Positions 2,175 to 48,633 of a DNA stretch of 64,000 nucleotides are shown here, in pieces. Position 1 is the stretch's first letter, and each line of letters opens with the position of its first letter. The notes beneath the pieces were generated by a model. That model was given only the letters and a program-made list of their open reading frames with translations. It was not told the origin of the DNA and ran no database searches. The position numbers and the translations under genes were made by a program. The stretch is from Escherichia phage OSYSP: sequence record MF402939; one strand, 5' to 3'.

Positions 2175-3152
2175 ATGAGAATATTATTTAGTGCTGATCA
2201 TCATATCAAACTAGGACAGGATAAAGTTCCAAAGGAATGGCAGAAGCGTCGCTTCCTGATGCTAGGAGAACGGTTAAATGATATATTCCATAATCATAAC
2301 TGTGATCTTCATATTGCTGGTGGTGATATACTTGATGTTGCCGACCCGTCGTCAGAAGAAATAGAACTGCTTGAACAGTTCATGTCAAGACTTGACCATC
2401 CAGGCAAAATCTTTACTGGAAATCATGAAATGTTAACTAAAACCATTTCGTGTCTATATCATTATGCGGGGGTTATTAATAAAGTAACTAGTGGGAAGTG
2501 GGAAGTAATTACCAAACCATATCGTTCCCCTGAATTTGATATTGTTCCGTATGATGAAATCCATAAGTCTAAGTGGAAACCATCTGAATCAAAACTATGT
2601 TTCACGCATGTTCGTGGTGAAATCCCTCCACATGTAAAACCAGAAATTGATCTAACTAAGTACAACTGTTATGATACTGTAATTGCTGGCGATTTACATT
2701 CTTATACTAATAGCCAGACTATCGGATCTACTAGACTCCTCTACCCAGGGTCTCCATTAACTACATCGTTCCATAGAGAACGCACAAAAGGTACAAATGG
2801 TTGCTTTATCATTGATACCGACACATTAAAAGTAGAATGGATTGAACTAGGTGATTTACCACAACTGATCCGTAAAACAATCGGAGCAGGTGAAGAGATG
2901 GAACCTAGTGATTATGATCGTGTAGTCTACGAAGTTACTGGTGACGTTGTTCAATTAAAGTCTATCAAAGACTCTGATTTATTAGATAAGAAGATTAACC
3001 ATCGAGTTACTAAAGATGCTAAGTTAAATCTTGTTGATCTTGATATGTTGGGCGAACTTGAACTTTACTTCCGTGAAGTCGAGAAGCTATCTCAAGGCGA
3101 CATTGATAGAATCTTGGCTAGAGCTGCGAAATATGTCAAAGATTACAATTAA
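2175..3152 (+). CDS. SbcD/Mre11-like metallophosphoesterase nuclease
   Basis: Calcineurin-like motifs ADHH, GGDILD, GNHE, GDLHS; overlaps and precedes a Rad50-like ATPase. Confidence 0.85.
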   Translation: MRILFSADHHIKLGQDKVPKEWQKRRFLMLGERLNDIFHNHNCDLHIAGGDILDVADPSSEEIELLEQFMSRLDHPGKIFTGNHEMLTKTISCLYHYAGVINKVTSGKWEVITKPYRSPEFDIVPYDEIHKSKWKPSESKLCFTHVRGEIPPHVKPEIDLTKYNCYDTVIAGDLHSYTNSQTIGSTRLLYPGSPLTTSFHRERTKGTNGCFIIDTDTLKVEWIELGDLPQLIRKTIGAGEEMEPSDYDRVVYEVTGDVVQLKSIKDSDLLDKKINHRVTKDAKLNLVDLDMLGELELYFREVEKLSQGDIDRILARAAKYVKDYN

Positions 3153-4971
3153 GACACTAAAATTTAGTAACGTTATGTCTTACGGTAAGGACATCGTAAT
3201 TCATTTCGATAAGAATCCAGTTACTCAACTAATCGGTGGCAATGGGCTAGGGAAATCTACTATCGCCACGGTTATAGAAGAGCTGTTCTATAATAAGAAC
3301 TCACGTGGTATTAAGAAAGATGCTCTGTTCTCTTGGTCTTCTCCGAAAAAAGAGTATGATATGCACGCTTACTTCTCAAAAGATGAAGATGAGTATGAAT
3401 TGCATAAAGTAGTTAAATCAACTGCTAAGGTTACACTCATTAAGAATGGAGAAGATATTAGTGGGCATACGGCAACCCAAACATATAAGATGATTGAAGA
3501 AATTATGGGGGGTGACTTTCAAACATTCACCAAACTGATTTATCAATCAGTGGGTTCTAATCTAGACTTCCTAAAAGCAACAGATGCAACACGTAAGGCT
3601 TTTCTTGTTAACTTGTTCAATCAAGAGCAATACAAAGAAATGTCAGAAACTATTAAGGCTGACCGTAAAGAAATAGCAAATACCTTAAATAATTTGCAGG
3701 GCCAGATGGCTGTAATTACGAAAATCCTTAATGGAAAAAATAATCTAGGAACTTTGCAGGAACCTGTAGAGGTGCCGGAGTTTGATGAAGAGCCATTAGC
3801 ACAAGAACTTACTGAATCGAAAATTAAGGCGGCATTAGCCAAGTCTCAAGAGGCTAATATTACTAAGTTGCGTAATTTGGACAAAGCTGTACAAGTTGCC
3901 GAACAATCTTTCGAACCTTTCAAAAATTTGCCCGCGCCCACCGACCAAAGTGAAGAGATCTCGAGTGTTACGCGTGACCTAACGATTGTGACCTCACGTG
4001 CGAGCGAAGTTAAGAAACGTTATCAGAAGTTCAAGCAAGAGGCTTCAAATACTGAATGCCCTACTTGCGGTACTCATCTGGATACAACTGCTGCCCAAAA
4101 AGCAATGGATATGGCTAGAACAGAATATGATCCTCTGTTCAAAGAGAAGCAATCTCTTGAAGCTAAGCTAGAACAGTTGAAGAAAGAACAACTTGAGTAC
4201 GTTGCGTATACTAGAGCAAAGGATGCTTTGGATAAAGCGGTGGTAGCTAGAGACGAGTTCAAAAATTCAATGAGTGATGCTTCTTTTGAAGAACTCAATG
4301 TGCAAATCCTACAGGTGCAAATCCGACAATTAGAACAGGAAATCGCTGATGGCCGCTCTAAGGTTGCAATTGCCAAAGAGCATAATGCAAATGTCGAATT
4401 AGCCAACGCAAAATATAAAGCGAAACTAGAACAGATTGAGAAAGCTGAAGCAGAAATGTCTGAGATTACTTCCAAACTTGATGGAGTAGCCGAAGCTGTA
4501 GCTGATCTTGATATTCTAATTGCTGCTTTGAAAAATCTGGTGGGATATAAACTAGAGCATAGTGTGAAAGTATTCGAAGAATTAATTAATAAATACCTTT
4601 CTATTATGACTGGAGGTAAATTCGCACTTGGATTTGAACTTGATGAAACGAAGTTACAAGTAGTAATCTTCAATGATGGAAATCGTACCAGTATGGAGAA
4701 CTGCTCTACTGGTCAGCAAAGTAGAATTAATCTAGCAACCCTGTTAGCTATTCGTATGCTGTTAACATCTATTAGTAAAGTTAATATTAATCTTCTATTC
4801 CTTGATGAAGTAATTAGCTTTATTGATACGAAAGGACTTGATACTCTCGTTGAACTATTAAATGAGGAAGAAAGTCTAAATTCTATCATTGTTTCTCATG
4901 GGCATACGCATCCATTAGCTCATAAGATTACTGTCAAAAAAGATGCAGAAGGATTTTCCTACTTAGAATAA
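3133..4971 (+). CDS. SbcC/Rad50-like ATPase with coiled coil and zinc hook
   Basis: Start taken at MSKITIK (ATG 3133) rather than the track ATG at 3031; Walker A GGNGLGKST, CPTC hook motif in a long coiled-coil region, signature-like STGQQS, Walker B LLFLDEV. Confidence 0.85.
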   Translation: MSKITIKTLKFSNVMSYGKDIVIHFDKNPVTQLIGGNGLGKSTIATVIEELFYNKNSRGIKKDALFSWSSPKKEYDMHAYFSKDEDEYELHKVVKSTAKVTLIKNGEDISGHTATQTYKMIEEIMGGDFQTFTKLIYQSVGSNLDFLKATDATRKAFLVNLFNQEQYKEMSETIKADRKEIANTLNNLQGQMAVITKILNGKNNLGTLQEPVEVPEFDEEPLAQELTESKIKAALAKSQEANITKLRNLDKAVQVAEQSFEPFKNLPAPTDQSEEISSVTRDLTIVTSRASEVKKRYQKFKQEASNTECPTCGTHLDTTAAQKAMDMARTEYDPLFKEKQSLEAKLEQLKKEQLEYVAYTRAKDALDKAVVARDEFKNSMSDASFEELNVQILQVQIRQLEQEIADGRSKVAIAKEHNANVELANAKYKAKLEQIEKAEAEMSEITSKLDGVAEAVADLDILIAALKNLVGYKLEHSVKVFEELINKYLSIMTGGKFALGFELDETKLQVVIFNDGNRTSMENCSTGQQSRINLATLLAIRMLLTSISKVNINLLFLDEVISFIDTKGLDTLVELLNEEESLNSIIVSHGHTHPLAHKITVKKDAEGFSYLE

Positions 4972-6332: not shown

Positions 6333-6775
6333 TTAAAATTAAATTAACTCACCCAGATTGTATGCCTAAGATTGGTTCCGAAGATGCCGCAGGTATGGAT
6401 CTGCGAGCATTCTTTGGTACTAACCCTGCCGCAGATTTACGTGCTATTGCACCAGGCAAATCCTTAATGATTGACACCGGTGTCGCGGTGTCAATTCCGC
6501 GAGGCTGGTTCGGTTTGGTGGTTCCTCGTAGCTCTTTAGGTAAGCGCCATTTGATGATTGCAAACACCGCAGGGGTGATCGACTCAGACTATCGTGGTAC
6601 TATTAAGATGAACCTCTATAATTACGGTTCTGAAATGCAAACTCTGGAGAATTTCGAGAGACTTTGTCAGCTAGTAGTGCTACCACACTATTCAACTCGT
6701 AATTTTGAAATAGTTGACGAACTAGAGGAGACTATTCGTGGAGAAGGTGGATTTGGAAGCTCAGGAAGCAAATAA
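6329..6775 (+). CDS. dut: dUTP diphosphatase
   Basis: dUTPase motifs AAGMDLRA, PRSSLGKRH, GVIDSDYRGTI and C-terminal RGEGGFGSSG. Confidence 0.9.
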   Translation: MIKIKLTHPDCMPKIGSEDAAGMDLRAFFGTNPAADLRAIAPGKSLMIDTGVAVSIPRGWFGLVVPRSSLGKRHLMIANTAGVIDSDYRGTIKMNLYNYGSEMQTLENFERLCQLVVLPHYSTRNFEIVDELEETIRGEGGFGSSGSK

Positions 6776-6995
6776 TTTTACTGATCCTAATATGGTAGGT
6801 ATTGATACTAATATGTCGGCTTATCAGATTAAAACTGAACCAGAAAAGTATGTACTGAAAACAGACAAAGAAGGTAATGTTACTTTCTGGGATCCTGAAG
6901 GTTTTGTGGAGCTTTGTACTAATAGTGACAACGAGCATTTAAAAATACTATTAACCATTTATAATCTTGGTATTATAGAAGGTTGTAGAAGCTAG
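6738..6995 (+). CDS. Hypothetical small protein (GTG start, overlaps dut 3' end)
   Basis: ORF with GAGGAG 8 nt upstream of GTG; no motif recognised. Confidence 0.3.
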   Translation: MEKVDLEAQEANNFTDPNMVGIDTNMSAYQIKTEPEKYVLKTDKEGNVTFWDPEGFVELCTNSDNEHLKILLTIYNLGIIEGCRS

Positions 6996-7001
6996 TTATA
7001 G

Positions 7002-7040
7002 AAAAACCCCAGCGGATTTTGTCCGCTGGGGTTTCTTTTT
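7002..7040. terminator. Bidirectional rho-independent terminator between convergent dut region and tail-fibre gene
   Basis: AAAAACCCCAGCGG-loop-CCGCTGGGGTTTCTTTTT, A-run and T-run on either side. Confidence 0.8.
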
Positions 7041-7052
7041 ACTATGTATACA

Positions 7053-9962
7053 TTATGAGTTATCTGGCTTAATGAGCTCACTCACAAGTTTTTTCAGTTC
7101 GGTTAATTCTTGCTCAAGTTTGTTAACTTTATCAGCTTGATAACGAAATGCACAAGCTAAATCCGCCATAATTACGTTATTATCAAGAGCTAATGTATCG
7201 TCCGCTTTATCAACAACAATTTGACGGTCTACATATTCTTCACCTTCTTCATTAACACCTATAACATCTGCAAAAATATCCCCGCCAGGAATTAATTTTA
7301 CATATTCCGGGTCTATTTTTAGTAGGTCTTGGGCTATTAAACCAAATCGCTGGATGTTGCTTCCATTGTATTTAAACATTGTAGGCAGCCACTGCATAAC
7401 GCGATCATAGCTTTCTTTTCCATCTGTATAAATTATATCATGCTTTAAATCTCTGTCAGAGTTGGCGGCCTTTTGAAAAATGAAATTTCCACTTGATGAC
7501 CATGTAGTTATATCGTTTGATGCTGGCTGAAACTGGAAGTTACAGAAAAAATTGCCATCACCACGAAGCCTTAACGAGCAAAAAGGCCAAGCATTATTTC
7601 CCTGTGGGATAAGACCCCAAGTTGCACGAATTGGATAACCACCAGTTGATTGTGTACCCCATGAAAGTCCAGGCGCCCATCCACCATCATTGTTAGGAAT
7701 AATCTCGCCCCAAACAAGAGCATTACCCCAATAGTTAGGATCATCCCAGCCCATTTGTTGGGTTTTGCCAGTGTATTGGGCGGAATGAGTTCTGCCGTCA
7801 GGGTAAAACTTGTGCATATAGGCCTGTATCCCTGCTTGATACAATTCTATTCCAAAAGATTCAATGTGTGTGTCGCCTCTTCTGATTAAACCAGCGATAG
7901 CGTAATCGTCATACCAATTGTAACGACTTACACCAGTCCATGTGTTTATGGGTGGATTCATGGTTGAAAATAGTTGTGACGCATTGCGTTCATTCCCGTC
8001 TGCATAAATACCAGCCCCCGGAGCTAATGAGATTGATTTTGCTCCTGAAAAAGTACCATTTTCATTAAATTGATAATAGTGAAACAAGTTATTATGAAAC
8101 ACACCTATTGTATGTTTTCCTACGCCTACTTGAGTTTCGAAATAAGACTGAGAAGAACCAATATCCTCGCCTTGTGTGTTCTTTAATTTTGAATGGTATA
8201 TACCTGCGTTTGCAGTATTTGCATTTTCCGTTTCATTTTCAACATTAAGGCTTAGAAATTTTGGTGCATGTTTTTCGCCAAGTCCTATATTGTTTCTAAT
8301 ACCATTCGCATCCTTAGCACCCGTACCACCAAATTGAATACCTAGTGGTAGCCATTGATTGGTTGTAGCATCATAAACGCCCCAATGATCCCCACCATCT
8401 GGAATGGTTAGATACTTGTTTTTATTTGGGGAATATAAAACTGTTTCACCAGAAGTCTGAAACAGCCTATCAACTCCTAAATTATATCTAGCACCTTCAA
8501 GTGTATCCGCTCCAGTACCACCAGCAATAATTGATAATGGAAGAGATTCCCATGAGATACCATCACCATTTATGTTTTTCTGGAGTACAATAAGCCCATC
8601 ATCTCGCATAACAAATCTATATAATCTATTATGCGAGTATAAAAAAGTATGAACCCCATCCTGCACAAGTGAGTCTATAAGGAGCGTCTGACGAGAAGCA
8701 TTAATATCCGACAGATCTGAAAGATTATTTTCTTTTAGTAACGATTTACCAATAATACCTTCAGCTTTTCCAGCAGCCACTTCTGCACGTCCAGCGTCGG
8801 TAGATGCGCTTTGTGCGCTACTAGCAGCATTACTAGCTTGTTGCCCGGCCTCAACAGCACTGTTACCCGCTTGTGTAGCGGAAATAGCAGCGGCGTCTTT
8901 TAGCACGGTAGTTTCGGACACAGCGGCATCCTTAATTGCTTGCGTCTCGCTTACTGCACTATCCTTAATAGTCTGTGTGTCAGACTTTAATTTTTCAACA
9001 TCTGCTTTTAAAGCTGTTGTTTCACCTACAGCGGCATCCTTAATTGCTTGCGTCTCGCTTACTGCACTATCCTTAATAGTCTGTGTGTCAGACTTTAATT
9101 TTTCAACATCTGCTTTTAAAGCTGTTGTTTCACCTACAGCGCTATCTTTAATTAGTTGAGTATCTGATTTTAGTTGCTCAACATCTGATTTTAAGCCTTG
9201 AATAGTGGTTACTGACTGACTAGCTGAGGTTGCAGAACTAGCTGCGTTAGTCTCACTATCTTTGGCTTTAGTCTCACTAGTTTTAGCATTTGTTTCACTA
9301 GTTTTAGCATTTGTTTCAGAGGTTTTTGCAGCAGACGCTGATGTAGCAGCTTGTGTAGAGAATGTTTCCGCCTCATTCCTAAAACCACTGGAATCCGCAG
9401 CGGAAGCGGCAGCATTAGTCTCACTGATTTTTGCTTTATCTTCACTAATTTTTGCAACAGCAGCAGATGCAGCAGCATTAGTCTCACTGATTTTTGCTTT
9501 ATCTTCACTAGCCTTTGCATTAATTTCGCTAGTTTTAGCTTTATCTTCACTAGCCTTTGCATTAATTTCGCTAGTTTTAGCTTTATCTTCACTAGTCTTT
9601 GCATTAGTTTCGGATATTTTAGCTGCTGCAGCGGATTCTGCAGACTTATTGGCTGACGTTGCGGACTGAGTAGCAGAAGTAGCTGATTGGGTAGCCGATG
9701 CTTCAGAAGCTTCCGCGGAAATCGCAGCTTCCTGTTCAGAATTCTTAGCATTAAGCTCTGAAGTCTTAGCAGCTATTTCAGAATCTTTTGCAGCCGCAGC
9801 AGATTTAGCAGTGGCCTCTATAGAAGATACTAACTCATTAGCAGTAATAGAGCTAATAGAATTTCCAAGAGTTACTGTGTATCTAGGAAATTTACTAGCA
9901 GTAGCTTTAGTATCATCAATATTTAATATTTGTTGTACAATAATCTTAGTAGTTATTGCCAT
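7053..9962 (-). CDS. L-shaped tail fibre protein (pb1-like) with C-terminal intramolecular chaperone domain
   Basis: 969 aa; Ala/Ser/Thr/Lys-rich repeat region encoded by tandem DNA repeats; C-terminal segment resembles autocleaving chaperone domains of fibre proteins; first gene of late module as in T5. Confidence 0.75.
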   Translation of the reverse strand: MAITTKIIVQQILNIDDTKATASKFPRYTVTLGNSISSITANELVSSIEATAKSAAAAKDSEIAAKTSELNAKNSEQEAAISAEASEASATQSATSATQSATSANKSAESAAAAKISETNAKTSEDKAKTSEINAKASEDKAKTSEINAKASEDKAKISETNAAASAAVAKISEDKAKISETNAAASAADSSGFRNEAETFSTQAATSASAAKTSETNAKTSETNAKTSETKAKDSETNAASSATSASQSVTTIQGLKSDVEQLKSDTQLIKDSAVGETTALKADVEKLKSDTQTIKDSAVSETQAIKDAAVGETTALKADVEKLKSDTQTIKDSAVSETQAIKDAAVSETTVLKDAAAISATQAGNSAVEAGQQASNAASSAQSASTDAGRAEVAAGKAEGIIGKSLLKENNLSDLSDINASRQTLLIDSLVQDGVHTFLYSHNRLYRFVMRDDGLIVLQKNINGDGISWESLPLSIIAGGTGADTLEGARYNLGVDRLFQTSGETVLYSPNKNKYLTIPDGGDHWGVYDATTNQWLPLGIQFGGTGAKDANGIRNNIGLGEKHAPKFLSLNVENETENANTANAGIYHSKLKNTQGEDIGSSQSYFETQVGVGKHTIGVFHNNLFHYYQFNENGTFSGAKSISLAPGAGIYADGNERNASQLFSTMNPPINTWTGVSRYNWYDDYAIAGLIRRGDTHIESFGIELYQAGIQAYMHKFYPDGRTHSAQYTGKTQQMGWDDPNYWGNALVWGEIIPNNDGGWAPGLSWGTQSTGGYPIRATWGLIPQGNNAWPFCSLRLRGDGNFFCNFQFQPASNDITTWSSSGNFIFQKAANSDRDLKHDIIYTDGKESYDRVMQWLPTMFKYNGSNIQRFGLIAQDLLKIDPEYVKLIPGGDIFADVIGVNEEGEEYVDRQIVVDKADDTLALDNNVIMADLACAFRYQADKVNKLEQELTELKKLVSELIKPDNS

Positions 9963-12463: not shown

Positions 12464-15297
12464 TCCACAGACTGTTCTCCATCATCCCCTTCTGCCCTAA
12501 TACGAAAATACAATTTTCTATTTATACCTAGAGCACCGCTGTTCTGGAGAGCAAAGTCTGCCTTATTATATGTTAATAAATAGTCATAAGTATACTGATT
12601 TTCAATACGTACACTTCTTAACATCCTATTTTGTGAATCGTGTATTTCAAGGGTATAAAATATACTCTCTATTATATCTTCTTCAGGTATTCTATCCCAG
12701 GCTAGTTTCACATCTGGGCCAACAAACTCAGTTACATCTCCAGAAGCAGTATTAGTTACCCTAAAATTAGATACTACACTAAGGTTTTTAGCAGAGTTAA
12801 GTTCTATAGACAGAGTCACCGGGGAACTTCTTCTACCATTAATATCTACTGCCCTTATCTCAAATATAGCCAGACCTGCTGGTTCCCCAATTATTTCTTG
12901 GACCATACGTTCGTTAGGATTGGTCTCTAACTGTTGTATTATGTAAGGTTCGGCATGGCCTGAGTGCACAATAGAGTAGTAAACTACATTATTGGTTAGA
13001 CTCGGAAGCCAGGATAACTCACCATTTTTACCTATAGAGCCTACTAAACCGCCAGGAGTAGGAGTATATTTAAAGTCTCTAGGAGGAAGGACATTGTTAC
13101 TAATATCAGGAATATCATTACCGCTATTATCAACCTGCTCAGAGTTGATGAATACATCCTCTCCATACTCCTGTAAGGTAACATTTATCTTACCCTCTCT
13201 AGAGTTTTCAACCTCATCAACTAGGAAATACTTTTTGTTCCACCCGTAACGGTCATACGTGAATGCAATAGCATCATTGGGTTCAATCCCTATGAACTGG
13301 TATGGTAATGAGAAAGAAAGTGTTCTTGAGTATCTGGATTTCTTAAGTTCTCTATCCGCAAAACTTCTTGCAGTATAGTAGTTAGTAATATTAGCAAAAG
13401 ATAGTTGTAATTTTTTATCTAGGTTCTTGTCCTGTTCCTTATACTTGGAATTATAGAATGTAATAGAATTAGTTTTCCAGCTAAGGGCGGGATCTACGAT
13501 AGATGCTTGAACTGAGTTGAATTTATTTCTACCAGTAGTATCTGATAGCTCCAAATCACCGTAAGTATCTAGAAAATTAATCTCTAAGGGAGTATTAGAG
13601 TATTTTTCTACAGTAACCCTATACTGACCAGATAAATTGTTAATAGCCCCACCATAGGACTCTAACAAACCTTGCACATTTTTAAATACTGATTCAGATG
13701 TATCCAAAATAGTATTCATTTGTACTATTTGTCTATTTTCTGCTAGTGGATCAGTCCACCCAACGTATCTCCAATATGGCTGCCAAGATACCTGATAGGA
13801 TTCATCTATAATATCTAAAATAGCTGCCTCCTGTATTAATTGCTGAAGAGGGAACTGATCAATGGTAATATTAGCGCCATATCTATCAGAGGTTAAGTAA
13901 TCAAGTGTTTGCCAAATACCATTTAAACTAGTACTATTAGCAGTTACTCTACCATCAGAATGATAGACTTTTACTTTTTTACCTTGAATTTCAGCACTAA
14001 CTTCTGGAATCTCAGTCCTATTTTCATTAATAGTGAAGCGCACCACTGCGTATGCAGTATCTAGTAGCTTATATCTAGCATCCCAGTACTCCGGCCCATT
14101 GCCATTCATATTCTGAAGGTAGAATCCACGTTCTTTAGCTATATCTACTAGTACTTCAGAGGCTGTTTGATCAGATTTTCCGTGATAAGTCCAAATCCTT
14201 ATGTCACCATTTCCATCATTATACTTATACTCTTGACCATGGACGGATGGACTACTAGAAGAGGTTCCAGATGCTATCCTCTGCATTGTATCTCCTGCTA
14301 TTTTTTTAGTACCAAAGCAGGTTCTAGCGGAGCTATCATTAGCATCTACGCAGATCATAGGATTATCACCGAAGGAGAAATCAAGAAAACCATCAATCTC
14401 CCCCTCAGCAAAGGCGTATACGACATAAACTATGTTGGGATTGTGTAGTTCTGTATCAGCAAAAATAGGTATTCCAGGAATTTTTTGAACCCCATAAACC
14501 ACCGGTATGTATTTAGCAGCAAGGTTAAAATCTATATCCACTTCCTTAGTGACAGTTTCATAGTATTTTTTAAGGCTGTAGCTTCTAGATAAACCAAATA
14601 ATTTTTTCTTTGATTTTAGCTTGTATCTTTCTTCTTGAACCTGATATTTTGCTAGGATAGAGATACTTTTATTAGAGTGGAAGAAGCCGTAGTCTTCTTG
14701 ATACTCTGGTCTTTTAGCACCATTAGATGGTACTAACTGTCCAGCTACAACTTCAAGCCCCCTATGGGAAGCGTCATCAGTATATCTACCATTAACTCTA
14801 TCAAAGTCATAGAATTGGTTAGAACAATTCCAGGTAATTGTAGAGGTTCCTACTCCAGAGGTACTAATGTTATCTTTAATACCCCCTCCAGTAATCCTCC
14901 CCCTAAAATATAGTAAAGGACCATTTGTATCTGGGTCTACTGGCAGAATAGAACCATCTTCAGTAATAATTGCTTGATGAATTGATACGGTTCTATCTAA
15001 GAAGGATACACCATTTTGTACTAGTTTTAGTACTTCATCCTGAGCTGTACCAGTAATAGTAAAAGATAGACTACCAATAGATAAATCTCTATTTTGTTTA
15101 TGTGAGCTAATAGACTTAACTTTACCCGCCTGGTATAAGATGCCATTATATAGTACATCCCTAAAATAATCAGTTAAATAAATAAAAGCAGTACTAGTAC
15201 CAGTAGAGCCAGGTAACTCTAGAGAAATTAGACTAGCAGTTTTTATTCTGCTATTATTTTTTAAGTAGTTTCTAGCACTATCTAGTATTTTTTTCAT
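12448..15297 (-). CDS. Baseplate hub protein (T5 pb3-like)
   Basis: 949 aa, matching T5 pb3 length and position. Confidence 0.7.
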   Translation of the reverse strand: MKKILDSARNYLKNNSRIKTASLISLELPGSTGTSTAFIYLTDYFRDVLYNGILYQAGKVKSISSHKQNRDLSIGSLSFTITGTAQDEVLKLVQNGVSFLDRTVSIHQAIITEDGSILPVDPDTNGPLLYFRGRITGGGIKDNISTSGVGTSTITWNCSNQFYDFDRVNGRYTDDASHRGLEVVAGQLVPSNGAKRPEYQEDYGFFHSNKSISILAKYQVQEERYKLKSKKKLFGLSRSYSLKKYYETVTKEVDIDFNLAAKYIPVVYGVQKIPGIPIFADTELHNPNIVYVVYAFAEGEIDGFLDFSFGDNPMICVDANDSSARTCFGTKKIAGDTMQRIASGTSSSSPSVHGQEYKYNDGNGDIRIWTYHGKSDQTASEVLVDIAKERGFYLQNMNGNGPEYWDARYKLLDTAYAVVRFTINENRTEIPEVSAEIQGKKVKVYHSDGRVTANSTSLNGIWQTLDYLTSDRYGANITIDQFPLQQLIQEAAILDIIDESYQVSWQPYWRYVGWTDPLAENRQIVQMNTILDTSESVFKNVQGLLESYGGAINNLSGQYRVTVEKYSNTPLEINFLDTYGDLELSDTTGRNKFNSVQASIVDPALSWKTNSITFYNSKYKEQDKNLDKKLQLSFANITNYYTARSFADRELKKSRYSRTLSFSLPYQFIGIEPNDAIAFTYDRYGWNKKYFLVDEVENSREGKINVTLQEYGEDVFINSEQVDNSGNDIPDISNNVLPPRDFKYTPTPGGLVGSIGKNGELSWLPSLTNNVVYYSIVHSGHAEPYIIQQLETNPNERMVQEIIGEPAGLAIFEIRAVDINGRRSSPVTLSIELNSAKNLSVVSNFRVTNTASGDVTEFVGPDVKLAWDRIPEEDIIESIFYTLEIHDSQNRMLRSVRIENQYTYDYLLTYNKADFALQNSGALGINRKLYFRIRAEGDDGEQSVEWASI

Positions 15298-39223: not shown

Positions 39224-39633
39224 TTATCCACTTGACTTTTATTTTCCAGTGGATAACTACTTATTTTATAAAATAAATTAATTGACTTTTATTTGTTAGT
39301 ATGCGTCGGAAAGATAGCAGACTAATAATTGCTAGGATGATAATCATGCTGGTGGATTGTAACGGCTTAAATTATTAGCAGACTATTAATCACGGAAAAT
39401 CTCATTAGCCAACTAACTATTTCATGATATATAATATACTTATAAATTAAGGAGAAATAATAATTATAAGAAATAATAGCTACAGTAAATATTAACTATA
39501 AGAAACTATCGGCCTAAGTGAGAACCACTATCATTTAAGTTATCCACAACGTTATCCACAGCACAAAATGATTTGACATAATAGGCGGTGATATAAGGAC
39601 TTTTACACAGACTTATCCACAGCTTATCCTACT
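39224..39633. promoter_or_regulatory. Divergent control region with DnaA boxes: inverted pair TTATCCACT/AGTGGATAA (39224-39256), palindrome TTATTTTATAAAATAA, perfect TTATCCACA boxes at 39540, 39552 and 39613
   Basis: Exact matches to the E. coli DnaA box consensus TTATCCACA read directly; duplicated TTGACTTTTATTT on both sides of the palindrome. Confidence 0.6.
39405..39435 (+). promoter_or_regulatory. Candidate promoter for the rightward pre-early operon
   Basis: TATAAT at 39430-39435 followed by ACTTATAAATTAAGGAGA, resembling the other early promoters; -35 is weak. Confidence 0.35.
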
Positions 39634-42855: not shown

Positions 42856-43050
42856 ATGAGCAATAAAATTGTTGTAACCAAAATCAGTACAATGGTTGAT
42901 GTTTTTTACGTGCCCGATACGCCGGAGAATCGGCGAGCGGTCGAGCGTGGCGAGTATGATAAAGTGATTTATGATCACGATGGTTACTATCAACATTTGG
43001 TGGATTCCTACGGGGAGGAGGAAAAAATCACGCATCGACTACCAGACTAA
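42856..43050 (+). CDS. Hypothetical pre-early protein (64 aa)
   Basis: Last gene of the rightward operon; preceded by palindrome AATAACGGAGCGTTATT; acidic. Confidence 0.5.
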   Translation: MSNKIVVTKISTMVDVFYVPDTPENRRAVERGEYDKVIYDHDGYYQHLVDSYGEEEKITHRLPD

Positions 43051-43187: not shown

Positions 43188-43334
43188 CTAATTTTTAAGC
43201 CTCCTCCAATTTTGCCCTTGTTTTAGTACCCCCACCAAAATTAAACGCGTTAGAATGCGATCTAGGACGTTTTAGCGGTATACTAGAATTATTCACTACA
43301 TAGGAATACTGTATATTTATACAGTAGGATATCC

Positions 43335-43416
43335 TGTGGATAAGTCTGTTAATAACGCCTCAAAATGGCTAGGATTCTGTCAAATCAAATCGTGCTGTTA
43401 ATAAGTCTGTGGATAA
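43335..43416. promoter_or_regulatory. Two consensus DnaA boxes (TGTGGATAA) in repeated context CTGTTAATAAGTCTG
   Basis: Exact reverse-complement matches to TTATCCACA at 43335-43343 and 43408-43416. Confidence 0.55.
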
Positions 43417-43446
43417 CTTAAATAACAGTGTTTCTCACTTCCATTC

Positions 43447-43608
43447 TTAAATGAGAATCATTATCATTCGCAGTCCACTGTCTAACCGATAATCATTTCC
43501 TTTCTTAAATGAGAATCATTTCACTTTTTGAATAGTTCTCATTTCCTTTCTTAAATGAGAATAATTATCATTCGCATTCCACTTCTTAAATGATAATGAT
43601 TCTCATTC
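43447..43608. repeat. Five copies of 24-bp motif CTTAAATGAGAATCATTATCATTCG (one inverted), Fur-box-like
   Basis: Copies at 43447, 43504, 43550 and inverted at 43584, plus palindrome at 43091; core matches 15 of 19 positions of the E. coli Fur box GATAATGATAATCATTATC. Confidence 0.6.
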
Positions 43609-43637: not shown

Positions 43638-44239
43638 TGTGCAAATCCGACATTGCTCCACGGGTGTTACGTGCGGGCATGTATGTGCGAATCCGACAAT
43701 TTTTGGTAGTGTGCGAATCCGACCCTAAAAACTTTTGTGATGTGCGAATCCAACAATGAATTTTCCCAAAAACTCCAGCAATCACGAACTGCGTTCGAAT
43801 CCTGTGGGATATGTGCAAATCCGACACGGTTTTTCTAGGATTAAGATGTGCAAATCCGACAAGATTTTTGTGACTTCGATGAGAGGGTGTGTGATTGTAT
43901 AGGTTTGAGGAGAAGATGAGAGAGCGAGAAAAGTTTGGGAGGCTAGAAGGATGCGGGCGCAGGATTGGTGCGGAGCACCTGATTTGCGGGGATTTTGGGG
44001 AAGAGTTGAGATAATTTGGGAAGATTTGAGATAGGTGCAGAAAAAGTAAAATTTTATTAGCAAAATGGGGCAAAATAGCTTGACAAGTGAAAATTTCTGT
44101 GGCTCTAAAAACTCAGGCAATCATGGGCCTTCGGCCCGAAATAATGCTGCCATTTTCAAGAGATTATATGTTCCTAAAAACTTAGGCGTTTGTGCAAATC
44201 CGACCATAAATTTCTAGGAACACAATGTACAAATCCGAC
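43638..44239. repeat. Nine direct copies of 15-bp motif TGTGCRAATCCGACA
   Basis: Copies starting near 43638, 43684, 43711, 43741, 43812, 43847, 44190, 44225 and a degenerate one at 43785; motif has partial dyad symmetry. Confidence 0.65.
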
Positions 44240-44340: not shown

Positions 44341-44761
44341 AGAGTTTCTAGGAATATGAAAACCGCCTGAGTTGACTAGAGAAACAGATTTAAAGTTTAA
44401 TGTAAACTCTAGAGTTAGTGCTCAACTATTCCTAGAAACTTAGGAGTCTAGAAGAAAGTGTTGTGCCATCCTAGCAGATGAGCGGCAACAGGTGTATCAT
44501 CTTGAACACAAATATTGCCTTTAAATATTTTTAGTTATTTAAAAGTAAATATACCCCCATTTCATGAGAGCTTACTCGTGGGGCGCGTGAGTATTACGGA
44601 AGACTTAGTAATTAGATCTATACTCGTGCTGTCGCAACGTATAGACGTAATACTAAGTGTAATAATCATCGCCCCTAGAGTTCAAAACAAGAGTTGTTTT
44701 TAATCTATGAGATTATTATAACATGTGCCGCAATGAGTTGTCAAGAAGATTTTGTTAATGT

Positions 44762-45118
44762 TTATACATCTCCTTCGAAATTGGTATTGGGATCGTAAAT
44801 CTTTTTGGCTCCTGTATTTAATAGGAATCGTTCTGCAAGTTGTGGGTGAATATCAAAGAACTCTGTACATCCTTCGAATCCCTTTAAATTACAGCGGTAT
44901 TTCTTAAAGTAGATATGAGCAGCGGCTTCTAGATCTCTAGGGTTATGGGTTTCATAGATTCCATACACATATAAATCGTCAAAACCTCGATAGACTATCT
45001 TATCTAAGTTTAGAGTTTGAATCCTATTATGTGGATTCATGCTAATACCGATCTTTGTTCTCTTAGGGATCTTTGTCAGATCCCTGTTCGCAAGAATATA
45101 TACTTTATATAGTGACAT
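44762..45118 (-). CDS. Possible GIY-YIG-like (T5orf172-type) domain protein
   Basis: 118 aa; N-terminal YKVYIL...KIGIS pattern reminiscent of GIY-YIG-like folds; weak assignment. Confidence 0.4.
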   Translation of the reverse strand: MSLYKVYILANRDLTKIPKRTKIGISMNPHNRIQTLNLDKIVYRGFDDLYVYGIYETHNPRDLEAAAHIYFKKYRCNLKGFEGCTEFFDIHPQLAERFLLNTGAKKIYDPNTNFEGDV

Positions 45119-45836
45119 TCTTTCTAGCCTTTAGATAGATTCCTTTAGATGCTAAATAAATATATGTAGCAAGGAATGAAGATGTAGATCCTGTTTCTTC
45201 AAGAGTAATAGATCCCTTTGCATAACGCTTGGTTCTAGGAGCCTGGTTAAGCACAAGCGCAGTGAGACTACCTAATCCTAGAGCATCCATTAGACGTTTG
45301 AAGGAGTCCTTTTCATCATGGATAGCGTATAGGATATAATCTTCCGCTGTAGTAAGTTCTATGTCACGATGATGTGCCACTGCAATCCGTGCTACTACAG
45401 CTCCAATCGTTCTATAAATATCTTCAAACGTGATACTAGTTTCAAATGCTAACGCTGGAAGATGATCGAACTTACATTTCTTAGGCGGAATGTATAATTG
45501 TTCTGGATATGCTTCTAATGCTTCTCTAGCGGATGTTTCTCTATAAGCCGGGAGAGGTTCATCAATGATAACATGGATATAGTTTCCCATGTGACCTTTA
45601 GCAGTGGGGTCTAAAGACTTGAGGAGTTTATTCATATCAACGTAAGAATAAGCAAGGTCGGCTTTTGCTGCTTTGTTATCATACTTAATCTTACCACCCT
45701 CCCATCTAGCTGGGAACATTTCGCAAACAAACATTACTGCATGTTTCTCTTCAGTGGTTAAATCAGAGAAACAGCGATGATCAGCCCCCTTAGCGAGGGC
45801 TAGAATATTCTTAAACTTTACAGCCAAATCTTTCAT
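45105..45836 (-). CDS. Hypothetical early protein (243 aa)
   Basis: Co-directional, overlapping early gene array; no motif recognised. Confidence 0.5.
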   Translation of the reverse strand: MKDLAVKFKNILALAKGADHRCFSDLTTEEKHAVMFVCEMFPARWEGGKIKYDNKAAKADLAYSYVDMNKLLKSLDPTAKGHMGNYIHVIIDEPLPAYRETSAREALEAYPEQLYIPPKKCKFDHLPALAFETSITFEDIYRTIGAVVARIAVAHHRDIELTTAEDYILYAIHDEKDSFKRLMDALGLGSLTALVLNQAPRTKRYAKGSITLEETGSTSSFLATYIYLASKGIYLKARKNVTI

Positions 45837-46456
45837 TAATTACCTCTCTTATCTTCATTAATGACAGCTCCCAACGCTTCCATAATTGCATCTTCTAAAC
45901 TTCCATGTTTACTAGGATTATTAAAATGAATAGTACAAACAGAACCCCTAGAAACTCCAGCATCCGCAGGTGCTACGCTTCGCATATCAGATTCAAAAGC
46001 TTCTTGGGTATGTTGCAACTGTACAGAAGGGCCGTAATCTTCACCAAACTTATATGACTTCGTACTACTTACCACACCCCCACAAGGAACATTGTGCATA
46101 TCCGACATTAATCTTTTATCGGAGTTATTCAGCATTGAGATTGTCCCTGACTGCCATGGATCTCTAATAGTCACTGGAGTACTAGGGCGGTTCACCTCAG
46201 TCTTCACAAGTTTGTACCCTGCATCGATTAGTGCATTAATCAGGTTATCCGCCGGGATGCGAGCCGTACCAAAAATCTTACGAGCGTTGTTGAGCCTACC
46301 TTCAAAATCTTTACATGCTTTAATATTAGTGTGTGCAAAGGTTAGCTTCATAGATTTGAACTGTACAGTGGCAGTTAAATCTTTAAAGCTATAATCCCAC
46401 GTATTCAGTTCATGATCTGGTACTACTTGAATAGATTGTTGTGCATATAAAGTCAT
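45836..46456 (-). CDS. Hypothetical early protein (206 aa)
   Basis: Co-directional early gene array; no motif recognised. Confidence 0.5.
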   Translation of the reverse strand: MTLYAQQSIQVVPDHELNTWDYSFKDLTATVQFKSMKLTFAHTNIKACKDFEGRLNNARKIFGTARIPADNLINALIDAGYKLVKTEVNRPSTPVTIRDPWQSGTISMLNNSDKRLMSDMHNVPCGGVVSSTKSYKFGEDYGPSVQLQHTQEAFESDMRSVAPADAGVSRGSVCTIHFNNPSKHGSLEDAIMEALGAVINEDKRGN

Positions 46457-46641
46457 TATTTATTCCCCAGTTTGTCTAACAGCTTATGAGCTGCTAGATT
46501 ATATTGTTTAAGTTCACGATTAAGAATTTGGTTCTCACACTTTAACTCTAAATTCTTATTATTAAGAATATTGCAGATTAGTAGAAGTGCTAGTATAACT
46601 AGCAGAGAACCTACGAGCATTAAAAGAAAAAGAGTTTCCAT
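46456..46641 (-). CDS. Small membrane protein (61 aa)
   Basis: N-terminal TM helix then coiled coil. Confidence 0.45.
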   Translation of the reverse strand: METLFLLMLVGSLLVILALLLICNILNNKNLELKCENQILNRELKQYNLAAHKLLDKLGNK

Positions 46642-46874
46642 TATTTAACTCCCATGTAACGTTTGAGATATATGATGAAGTCTTCTGCTGTATGCTCTAC
46701 GCTACCTTGAGCTACAAATAGCTTGAGGGCTTCACGTTGTAGTTTAAGAGCAGCCAACTCACCACGTAATTTTATTAGATCTTCTGCTAGTTCTCTAGCT
46801 CTACGCATAATAGCAAAAGATACAAGTACTACGATGAATAACATAACTACTAAAATAATTGCTATGATTTCCAT
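46641..46874 (-). CDS. Small membrane protein (77 aa)
   Basis: N-terminal TM helix IIAIILVVMLFIVVLVSFAI then coiled coil. Confidence 0.45.
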   Translation of the reverse strand: MEIIAIILVVMLFIVVLVSFAIMRRARELAEDLIKLRGELAALKLQREALKLFVAQGSVEHTAEDFIIYLKRYMGVK

Positions 46875-47152
46875 ATTAACATCCAGCTTTTATCACACAT
46901 TTGGGCATGATCTATCAGTTCATTCATTGATGTATTGTTATCATAAATGCACTCTAGTATATACCTTCTGTCAAATTCGTCAACCAAATATTCTACATTA
47001 TTTATTACTACTTTATACAGATCTGGGACTAGAGAGCATGTATTTGGTATGGGGCGACTGCTTAAGTCTATTTCATTATAGCCCCATGTTGTTTTAAATA
47101 GTTTGTTACTAAGTGCTGCTAATGGATTTGACCATATAATATAGCTACTCAC
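46862..47152 (-). CDS. Hypothetical early protein (96 aa)
   Basis: Overlapping gene array. Confidence 0.45.
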   Translation of the reverse strand: MSSYIIWSNPLAALSNKLFKTTWGYNEIDLSSRPIPNTCSLVPDLYKVVINNVEYLVDEFDRRYILECIYDNNTSMNELIDHAQMCDKSWMLIWKS

Positions 47153-47591
47153 TATTTATCTCCATTCTTAACTTTGAAAACTTATTATACCAAACTATAT
47201 GATTATCGTCAATTACAAATTTATGATAACATGCTGGTACGGTATAAGTTCCATAATCCGTGACACGCTGCACAACCTTGTGTACACACAGTCGACAACC
47301 ATGCCCTTCTAAATGAGATCTAGCAGTCTGCCAGTAATAACCATCATGATCTGGACAATAAATCTCGACTTGTTGCTGCATTGTTTTATAATTTACACGC
47401 TCATACCCAAAGAAAGCTCCATGAGCTGCAACGGCTTTCTTGATAAATATAAGGTTTAGTGCTTCTTGTTGAAAGTCGGGGTGTAGCTGCTTAATCTTAG
47501 TTCTATTAATAGACCCATCCGATTTTACGAATCTATTTATAGGGAAGTTGTTAGCTTCCTCGATTAATAATTCATTTACTTTTTCTCTCAT
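47145..47591 (-). CDS. Cys/His-rich hypothetical protein, possible zinc-binding nuclease
   Basis: Start moved to MREKVNE (1 nt after upstream stop); CPDHDGYY...HLEGHGCRLCVH. Confidence 0.45.
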   Translation of the reverse strand: MREKVNELLIEEANNFPINRFVKSDGSINRTKIKQLHPDFQQEALNLIFIKKAVAAHGAFFGYERVNYKTMQQQVEIYCPDHDGYYWQTARSHLEGHGCRLCVHKVVQRVTDYGTYTVPACYHKFVIDDNHIVWYNKFSKLRMEINSE

Positions 47592-47592
47592 A

Positions 47593-47796
47593 CTAAATAG
47601 TCTCACAGCTAAGGTGGAAACATTCGTAAGCATCTCCAGTAAACTCTTTATCTTGTAGTATACACTTAGCCTGGTCTTCCGGTACTCCAACATCTAATAA
47701 TTGTTGTTTACTTGGCTTTTCAGCGAATACTTTTACAAAATACTCACCATCCTGATTATACTCATTTATATCTCTAGTAAGGACATACACTTGCAT
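47593..47796 (-). CDS. Hypothetical early protein (67 aa)
   Basis: ORF followed by downstream gene start 1 nt after its stop. Confidence 0.45.
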   Translation of the reverse strand: MQVYVLTRDINEYNQDGEYFVKVFAEKPSKQQLLDVGVPEDQAKCILQDKEFTGDAYECFHLSCETI

Positions 47797-47852: not shown

Positions 47853-48224
47853 TTAATGAAGTTGTTTACCACTTCTTAACATAGTGGCCGTTTCCATAAG
47901 ACCTAGCGTAGCATCACGCTTATTGATCTGTTTACCAAGTTCATCAGTACGTTTACTGATGTAAGCATTAATAGCCATATTCATAGCTGTAGCGAGATCT
48001 TCTTTGGTTATCTCTTCATCGTCTAAAGCTAATTTAGCCAAAGAATCAAATGTGCTAGAGAGTCCTATAAGATCTGAGGTTTCTCCCGCCAAAATAGGAT
48101 TAATATTATCTACTGTTACTTCTAGCATGGAGTTGACAATATCTTCACCGTCTATTAGACCAGTTTCAATATTACTCTCCCACTCCTTCATCTGCTCCAA
48201 TAATGGATTTTTCTTTTCTGTCAT
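47853..48224 (-). CDS. Hypothetical early protein (about 123 aa)
   Basis: Start placed at MTEKKNP with AGGAAA RBS; the track ORF extends to 48290. Confidence 0.45.
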   Translation of the reverse strand: MTEKKNPLLEQMKEWESNIETGLIDGEDIVNSMLEVTVDNINPILAGETSDLIGLSSTFDSLAKLALDDEEITKEDLATAMNMAINAYISKRTDELGKQINKRDATLGLMETATMLRSGKQLH

Positions 48225-48633
48225 GGTAGAGGTTTCCTGTGTCAGTCGGTAAGAAGGATGATTGCGTTTTAGGTGGATGTTGCTTAGCAATCCAGTTAAG
48301 AATCAGCACGCGACTAGGAACAATATCGGTGTTATACCAAAAATCGTGAACCCATTGACGAGCATCTTCAAACTTACCAAATTTATATGCTTTCTTAAAC
48401 AATTCAAATCCAAAACAATCTGGTGTAAAGTCTACTTCGCGATATTGAATTACTTTAGAACCAGTTAGGTCTTGGATCGCTGCATTAATTTCTGTATGCG
48501 AGAATTTTGTTTCATGAAACTTATTAAAGAATCGGTAGTTGAAGCGTCCGTTCGTTTCGACAAACAACTGGATGAAGAGATCGTTAAATTGGTTATCAAA
48601 CCAGTAATTCTGTAGTTGTTGTAGTGCTGTCAT
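48172..48633 (-). CDS. Hypothetical early protein (153 aa)
   Basis: ORF in early array; 3' end overlaps next gene. Confidence 0.45.
   Translation of the reverse strand: MTALQQLQNYWFDNQFNDLFIQLFVETNGRFNYRFFNKFHETKFSHTEINAAIQDLTGSKVIQYREVDFTPDCFGFELFKKAYKFGKFEDARQWVHDFWYNTDIVPSRVLILNWIAKQHPPKTQSSFLPTDTGNLYHDRKEKSIIGADEGVGE

Follow-up and report, generated by a model that had tools for sequence, protein, structure and literature searches.

Gene content of the locus

We analyzed a window of 64,000 nucleotides (nt) from Escherichia phage OSYSP (sequence record MF402939), the window being the whole stretch of DNA under study, and focused on three overlapping genes at its positions 44,762 to 46,456, the shortest of which encodes a 118-amino-acid (aa) protein with a nuclease domain. 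Sequence identity and gene order place the window in a T5-like phage: its DNA is 95.8% identical to that of Escherichia phage T5_ev219 over 3 kb, 444 records of T5-like phages match it, and its genes follow the order of T5 genes T5.018 to T5.026. A reading made from the letters of the window (hereafter, the sequence-only reading) had proposed three overlapping genes of 118, 243 and 206 aa at this place, and the three open reading frames (ORFs) were confirmed at exactly those positions. They overlap by 14 nt (118/243) and 1 nt (243/206), each is preceded by a plausible ribosome-binding site, and purifying selection acts on the homologue family of each; we regard all three as real genes. The three are located on the minus strand and read toward the repeat field, the repeated DNA to their left. 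The features that carry the main argument are the following.

44762..45118, minus strand: free-standing T5orf172/MUG113 nuclease-domain gene, 118 aa (Pfam, phrog_18411, GenBank relatives)
45105..45836, minus strand: gene of the 243-aa protein, PHROG 8993, a polymorphic cassette gene (phrog_8993, E 8.9e-119)
45836..46456, minus strand: gene of the 206-aa protein, T5.019 orthologue, PHROG 5271 (phrog_5271, E 3.9e-127, residues 3-204)
44764..45116, no strand: 353-bp block, present or absent, read as a mobile insertion (nuclease-less locus L007; locus L006 against L033/L034)

All three genes are already contained in deposited genomes of T5-like phages, with 99-100% aa identity for two of them and no more than 94% for the 206-aa gene. 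Profile searches with hidden Markov models (HMMs) and structure-based searches were run for the trio and returned no homology to structural or housekeeping proteins.

Domain and family of the 118-aa protein

The 118-aa protein matches two Pfam domain models over residues 6-97, MUG113 (PF13455; E 5.4e-12, 46.5 bits against a gathering cut-off of 22.3) and T5orf172 (PF10544; E 3.5e-8, 34.3 bits against a cut-off of 20), so that the domain fills most of the protein and leaves a tail of 20 residues. It also matches phrog_18411, annotated as "homing endonuclease", with an E value of 2.8e-49. An annotation of this kind is already present in GenBank, where relatives of the gene are labelled "putative homing endonuclease P-TflXVII" (as P-TflXVII in DT57C and T5_ev219) or "GIY-YIG nuclease". 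We take T5orf172 and MUG113 to belong with the GIY-YIG superfamily through their Pfam clan, and T5orf172 has been described as a GIY-YIG subfamily (PMC10448857). The GIY-YIG-like call that the sequence-only reading had made for this protein is therefore upheld by the two HMM matches at the level of the superfamily and of T5orf172.

Longer relatives of 242 aa are found at the same locus in other phages. They possess an extra N-terminal domain that is absent from the 118-aa protein, which matches only their C-terminal nuclease half. Between the two forms, which are 40% identical, Y7 (within VYI), K22-I23-G24, R32, H68 and E86 (within TEFF) are invariant. The spacing of these motifs resembles that of I-TevI, with the arginine 10 residues past the second motif, and, as read from the sequence, the glutamate of TEFF would correspond to E75 of that enzyme. 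In a profile search of PDB with the nuclease family, ribosomal protein uL23 was returned with an E value of 0.005 and was judged spurious.

Presence, absence and transfer of the nuclease gene

The gene behaves as a discrete unit that is either present or absent. In the nuclease-less locus L007, window position 45117 aligns to position 7672 and window position 44763 to position 7677, which means that 353 bp of the window are replaced by 4 bp. Copies with at least 80% identity occur in 47 of the ~493 T5-like records that contain the locus, i.e., ~10% (of all these records, 289 have the 243-aa type of gene and 204 the T5.018 type), and in 2 of 26 IMG/VR loci.

The DNA on either side of the gene appears to have travelled with it. 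A comparison of near-isogenic loci without (L006) and with the nuclease (L033 and L034) revealed that the unit imported, along with ~45 nt of the downstream promoter, the final ~17 nt of a 243-aa gene of the window's type, so that window-type (type-a-like) flanks sit inside a type-c genome. In GEC_vB_N5 and phC11 the same nuclease (96-97% identical in aa) lies behind 243-aa alleles that are only ~52% identical to that of the window. Similarly, in Sepoy, a phage of the genus Epseptimavirus, identity to the window reaches 92-100% from position 45799 to 44600 but mostly lies at 57-84% in the flanking genes, where a single 100-nt bin stands at 92%; in DT57C, a breakpoint of identity falls within the 243-aa gene. 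The combination of a precise indel, co-converted flanks and different allele backgrounds is the signature of a homing-endonuclease gene.

At the same time, the coding sequence is well maintained. The ratio of nonsynonymous to synonymous substitution rates (dN/dS) is 0.02-0.19 at synonymous divergence (dS) of up to 0.71, and eight homologues are all 118 aa long, with no frameshifts or length changes. The nuclease is apparently present in all 30 records that carry the 243-aa allele type of the window, and in the five of these that were checked the spacing is constant at 433 nt.

Two further observations concern Salmonella phage Kenya-K36 (locus L030, positions 2474-3629), which encodes a chimeric ORF of 144 aa in which no more than residues 1-66 of the 118-aa nuclease are present, followed by an ORF of 242 aa, a length shared with the long-form T5orf172 genes at the locus. 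This arrangement looks like the outcome of recombination between two homing genes at one site.

A probable homing element between the 243-aa gene and a candidate small-RNA gene

Taken together, we consider it probable, with room for doubt, that the 118-aa gene is a selfish mobile element of the homing-endonuclease kind, lodged between the 243-aa gene and a candidate small-RNA gene described below. The sequence-only reading had listed it among candidates for early host-shutoff or nucleic-acid-modifying functions; its behavior is rather that of a selfish mobile element. Under our reading, in a mixed infection the product would cut nuclease-less genomes near the junction of the 243-aa gene and the RNA promoter, repair off the nuclease-carrying genome would copy the gene plus a variable length of flanking DNA, and the nuclease gene, together with the neighboring allele, would thereby spread between Tequintavirus and Epseptimavirus genomes.

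This proposal has close parallels. The T5orf172 homing genes of ICP1 and T5-like phages (PMC10448857) likewise have a T5orf172 domain, are free-standing, occupy intergenic slots, occur sporadically, and lie at boundaries of genetic exchange with co-converted flanks. The 118-aa protein differs from them in lacking a zinc-finger DNA-binding domain (CapR, DUF723 or DUF4397), and its gene is under strong purifying selection, whereas many homing genes of ICP1 have frameshifts and truncations. The free-standing GIY-YIG homing endonucleases of T4 (I-TevI and the Seg proteins) share the proposed mode of spread, in which the gene-less allele is cut and neighboring markers are co-converted; unlike them, the 118-aa protein lacks both a linker and a DNA-binding domain, and it shows no profile similarity to PF01541 or I-TevI. 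A small stand-alone GIY-YIG protein with no fused targeting domain is exemplified by E. coli YhbQ/UPF0213, which is ~100 aa long, cellular and vertically inherited. The likeness ends there, as the 118-aa gene is a mobile phage indel on the T5orf172 branch.

Several observations weigh against a homing endonuclease. The canonical GIY-YIG model PF01541 does not match the 118-aa protein at E values up to 1, an hhalign comparison with the catalytic domain of I-TevI gave a probability of 1% and thus no signal, and no GIY-YIG protein was found among the PDB matches. The catalytic role suggested for Y7, R32, E86 and the other invariant residues is putative and comes from reading motifs. Neither Pfam nor PHROG detects a DNA-binding or further domain in the protein, while 87% of the surveyed T5orf172 homing genes have a zinc-finger domain (PMC10448857); given this missing domain, it is hard to see how the 118-aa protein would find its target. 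Finally, the strong purifying selection and the apparent fixation in 30 records would also fit a domesticated function.

The last point leads to the strongest competing explanation, a domesticated nuclease or nuclease-derived regulator that helps the phage, for example by degrading the DNA of the host, of rivals or of satellites. Besides the low dN/dS, the constant length, the apparent presence throughout one allele type and the missing DNA-binding domain, this explanation can draw on a weak match of the protein to the candidate defence family PDC-S57 and on the co-option of T5orf172 domains elsewhere, namely CapR and Odn in ICP1/PLE (PMC10448857). We nevertheless regard it as unlikely: ~90% of T5-like phages lack the gene, the clean indel with co-converted flanks occurs in a second allele background, the block of high identity centred on the gene spans genus boundaries, and low dN/dS can also come from selection for continued homing.

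Another explanation would solve the targeting problem with a second gene, located on the same strand 2 kb away.

47145..47594, minus strand: T5.023 homologue, stand-alone version of the N-terminal module of 242-aa T5orf172 proteins (the mechanical ORF starts at 47693)

The 118-aa module and this separate protein could form a split homing endonuclease, with the T5.023 homologue giving DNA recognition. The T5.023 homologue is 61% identical over 104 aa (E 2e-45) to the N-terminal half of 242-aa T5orf172 proteins (L005, L009 and L012), and the module common to it and these endonucleases is rich in cysteine and histidine. Moreover, its residues 81-139 match positions 369-431 of phrog_681 ("endonuclease"), directly followed there by the stretch 442-540 that the 118-aa protein matches. 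T5.023 is found, however, in T5 and other phages that have no 118-aa gene at the locus, which argues for a role of its own; Pfam finds no known zinc-finger DNA-binding family in the homologue, and an interaction between the two proteins would be hypothetical. A two-gene enzyme is accordingly doubtful, somewhat more so than a domesticated nuclease, and the T5.023 homologue may be either a domesticated DNA-binding domain of a homing endonuclease or the partner of the 118-aa nuclease.

A decaying remnant of a longer homing endonuclease that has lost its DNA-binding half, as might be read from the coverage of only the C-terminal half of the 242-aa relatives and from the 66 residues preserved in the Kenya-K36 chimera, is very improbable and was rejected on dN/dS, considering also that the eight homologues are unbroken at dS of up to 0.71 and that the gene shows evidence of recent transfer to a second allele background.

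The 243-aa protein and its alleles

The gene into whose end the nuclease gene extends is itself highly variable. By tblastn, the 243-aa protein was found in 289 phage records, with identities from 99.6% down to ~30%. The remaining T5-like phages have a T5.018-type gene in the same slot; both types together cover nearly all T5-like records, and none of the 26 IMG/VR loci has the two side by side. T5.018 (the "33.8 kDa early protein" of AY692264) has the same position and strand as the 243-aa gene. The two types belong to different PHROGs (8993 for the 243-aa protein and 8583 for T5.018), and a BLASTP comparison of the two proteins is unconvincing (E 0.015) and yields nothing alignable, whereas hhalign relates the two families with a probability of 86% and an E value of 5e-6 over 108 columns. 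The two types are thus probably homologous proteins in one slot.

The AlphaFold2 (AF2) model of the 243-aa protein is confident, with a predicted local distance difference test (pLDDT) score of 87.7, and consists of an alpha/beta N-terminal half and a helical C-terminal half. A fold search of PDB with this model gave no match, the best E value of 2.9 being noise. In BFVD, all Foldseek matches are uncharacterised proteins of T5-like or Demerecviridae phages or unnamed entries; they include proteins of T5.018-like lengths, 282-298 aa, from T5-like phages of other enterobacterial hosts (E 3.5e-6 to 3.3e-3). The family conserves two motifs, H-x3-D-E and K-x-C-x3-H.

The dN/dS of the 243-aa gene is 0.03-0.16 where dS is unsaturated, and 0.28 for L013 at a dS of 1.86; between more distant types, dS is high to saturated (1.5 or more). 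Such low ratios indicate that the divergence does not come from rapid positive selection. In the same pairs of genomes, dS is 0.1-0.25 in the 206-aa gene versus more than 1.5 in the 243-aa gene, and in 25 of the 26 loci homology to the window stops at the junction of the 206- and 243-aa genes, within ~45 nt (45829-45876); L003, which carries the same allele as the window, is collinear throughout. The high dS relative to the neighboring gene, together with the breakpoints at the junction, implies that the 243-aa gene exists as old alleles that are swapped as a cassette.

The whole stretch that runs from T5.019 up to the terminal repeat is a hotspot of diversity. Within it, many T5-like phages (L004-L028, at ~6600-7100) have one more ORF, 113-162 aa long, that separates the T5.019 homologue from the 243-aa homologue; at least four unrelated versions of it exist (e.g., PHROG 13456), none of which is found in the window.

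The 206-aa protein

The neighboring 206-aa gene shows a more uniform history. T5.019 of T5 is its orthologue, with ~77% identity and the same position and strand. Homologues form 268 clusters, all from T5-like phages, with 78-94% identity among the 120 listed, and in 26 of 26 loci a homologue lies directly upstream of the polymorphic gene. The dN/dS of the gene is 0.17-0.34. An exhaustive profile search with this family against 1.84 billion representatives returned only two real relatives; three long proteins that the profile matched in many short stretches were judged spurious. No PDB sequence matches the 206-aa protein, and its AF2 model failed (pLDDT 42), so that the lack of a PDB match in the fold search carries no meaning. 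Several histidine and cysteine residues are invariant in the family, which hints at metal binding. Judged by these searches, the protein is a conserved orphan of T5-like phages.

Expression, dispensability and possible roles of the two larger proteins

The sequence-only reading had found no recognisable motifs in the two larger proteins. Consistent with this, neither the 243-aa nor the 206-aa protein, singly or as a profile, has a match in Pfam, NCBIfam, PADLOC or the PDB sequences. Its view of the trio as early genes also fits published data on phage Bas33. There, the T5.019 homologue reached 1,732 and 1,737 transcripts per million (TPM) at 20 min post infection and the adjacent gene, of 241 aa, 1,200 and 1,121 TPM (PMC13250531 Dataset S1), and expression of both genes (0166 and 0167) dropped more than 10-fold when second-step transfer was blocked with daunorubicin (PMC13250531). 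The homologues thus need second-step transfer, as expected of early genes. In T5, CRISPRi-ART knock-downs of T5.018, T5.019 and T5.020-T5.023 were all scored as "Not Fit", a class in which the knock-down costs the phage nothing measurable in its laboratory host (PMC11879866 supplement). In the literature searched, T5.018, T5.019 and P-TflXVII are not mentioned in the main text.

From these data and from their distribution, the 206- and 243-aa proteins would be classed as non-structural early proteins, dispensable in the laboratory and restricted to T5-like phages. They would most likely act as conditional factors in the interaction with hosts or competitors, in counter-defence or in competition between phages, a reading that we favor with low confidence. 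What weighs against it is that it follows only from dispensability, restriction to T5-like phages and balanced allelic polymorphism.

A role in early host shut-off or nucleic-acid modification, as the sequence-only reading had suggested for these genes, is less well founded. Early expression of the homologues and their lack of a known function leave room for it, and the invariant histidine and cysteine residues of the 206-aa family, as well as the two motifs of the 243-aa family, could mark metal sites. On the other hand, the T5.018 and T5.019 knock-downs were free of cost, the degradation of host DNA by T5 has been assigned to the pre-early gene A1 (bioRxiv 10.64898/2026.04.02.716235), no enzyme family was recognised by sequence or fold, and a function of this kind should be conserved, whereas identity between the alleles falls as low as 30%. 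We judge it highly unlikely that these two proteins act in host shut-off or nucleic-acid modification.

Position of the trio relative to the terminal repeat and the early operon

The non-coding repeat field to the left of the trio is the end of the T5 terminal repeat, including the injection stop signal, and the annotation of T5 places this signal directly before the gene block of the trio. The window has pairs of consensus DnaA boxes at 39540-39621 (plus strand) and 43335-43416 (minus strand), with the boxes of a pair 3 nt apart; the two sites are inverted relative to each other and ~3.7 kb apart. In T5, such pairs mark repeat regions 2 and 3, including the injection stop signal (bioRxiv 10.1101/866236), and this correspondence places the signal of the window near 43300-43450. 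The plus-strand pre-early genes stop at 43050. The right boundary of the terminal repeat, projected from the T5 annotation (10219) and from the PhageTerm repeat of Sepoy (10295), falls at ~44117-44150; given this projection, the RNA candidate and the three genes would be situated in unique DNA, at least ~400 bp off the repeat.

On the opposite side of the trio, the following features were identified.

47184..47212, minus strand: sigma-70 promoter, TTGACG, 17 nt, TG-TATAAT (11/12 consensus, extended -10)
46456..47152, minus strand: homologues of T5.022 (96 aa), T5.021 (77 aa, DUF7237) and T5.020 (61 aa) (PHROGs 9887, 6021 and 5799; Pfam; synteny)

The promoter at 47212-47184 is the sole strong match upstream of the trio and is identical to a promoter annotated within T5.023 of T5 (T5 13212-13286). 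It is preceded by a terminator-like hairpin at 47849-47816, where T5 annotates one too, and followed by six abutting or overlapping ORFs of 96, 77, 61, 206, 243 and 118 aa; for T5.020 and T5.021, the annotation of T5 gives single-pass membrane proteins as products. Most likely, this promoter drives the six ORFs as an early operon. The uneven expression of the homologous operon genes in Bas33 (154 to 1,737 TPM) weighs against such a simple arrangement, and internal promoters or differential RNA decay are possible in view of it. Further upstream, an ORF at 48172-48633 (minus strand) is a putative T5.026 homologue by synteny and identical length (462 nt); the product of T5.026 binds host RNA polymerase (PMC7472727).

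The minus-strand orientation and the position of this promoter make the trio the last three of six coupled ORFs, that is, the promoter-distal end of a leftward accessory early operon. This corrects the sequence-only reading, according to which the trio comprised the first genes transcribed after the repeat field. What would remain first is their entry: if the T5 order holds, with the left terminal repeat transferred first, the trio would be the first protein genes of second-step transfer to enter the cell, 3' ends first.

A candidate structured RNA beside the nuclease gene

Immediately downstream of the nuclease gene, we identified a second promoter and a candidate RNA.

44715..44744, minus strand: perfect sigma-70 promoter, TTGACA, 18 nt, TG-TATAAT (12/12 match, extended -10), 18 nt past the nuclease stop codon
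44545..44712, minus strand: candidate structured non-coding RNA of ~170 nt with a G-U-rich terminator hairpin (folding; beside the trio)

The minimum free energy of the candidate is -55.9 kcal/mol (z -6 to -7). Its predicted fold begins with two small hairpins on the 5' side, which are followed by a long hairpin in the center and by the G-U-rich terminator. The promoter is found in 33 of 35 loci, including those of T5 and Klebsiella phage Roth37, and 11 loci show no variation in its -10 element or in the 50 nt behind it. At least seven unrelated sequence types of the central hairpin occur, yet all adopt one three-part shape (z -3.6 to -7.0), with the sense strand more stable in every case. Pairing in the outer helices reaches 86.8%, compared with 34-47% for slid controls, and double changes are seen at 7 pairs. 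Rfam and ARAGORN detect nothing in the region; 264 phage records match it, almost all of the listed rows having no annotation there, and neither the T5 injection preprint (bioRxiv 10.1101/866236) nor the BF23 paper describes a promoter or an RNA at this spot. An antisense target was considered and rejected, as no match elsewhere in the 64-kb window is longer than 12 nt, a length expected by chance.

Each of the seven RNA types pairs with one allele type of the 243-aa/T5.018 gene. The RNA type of the window occurs in exactly the same 30 records as its protein type, and the nuclease insertion does not break up the pairing. Either linkage alone, over 80-430 bp, or a functional pairing could account for this. 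That the 243-aa/T5.018-family protein and the ~170-nt RNA form a co-evolving protein-RNA pair is an idea we consider unlikely.

Implications

The RNA candidate, though located outside the trio, is the most promising lead for new biology at this locus. If the protein-RNA pair were true, no complete transcription unit of the second-step-transfer DNA would enter the cell before that of the RNA, and the nuclease gene would be a parasite lodged in the joint of the module. More generally, old alleles occupy the slot beside the injection stop signal, and the protein that they encode has no PDB counterpart; this pattern is frequent in genes for counter-defence or competition. The 118-aa gene, for its part, offers a clean case of a T5orf172 nuclease that lacks a DNA-binding domain while displaying the footprints of homing and strong purifying selection, and it may be useful for asking how minimal nucleases locate their targets.

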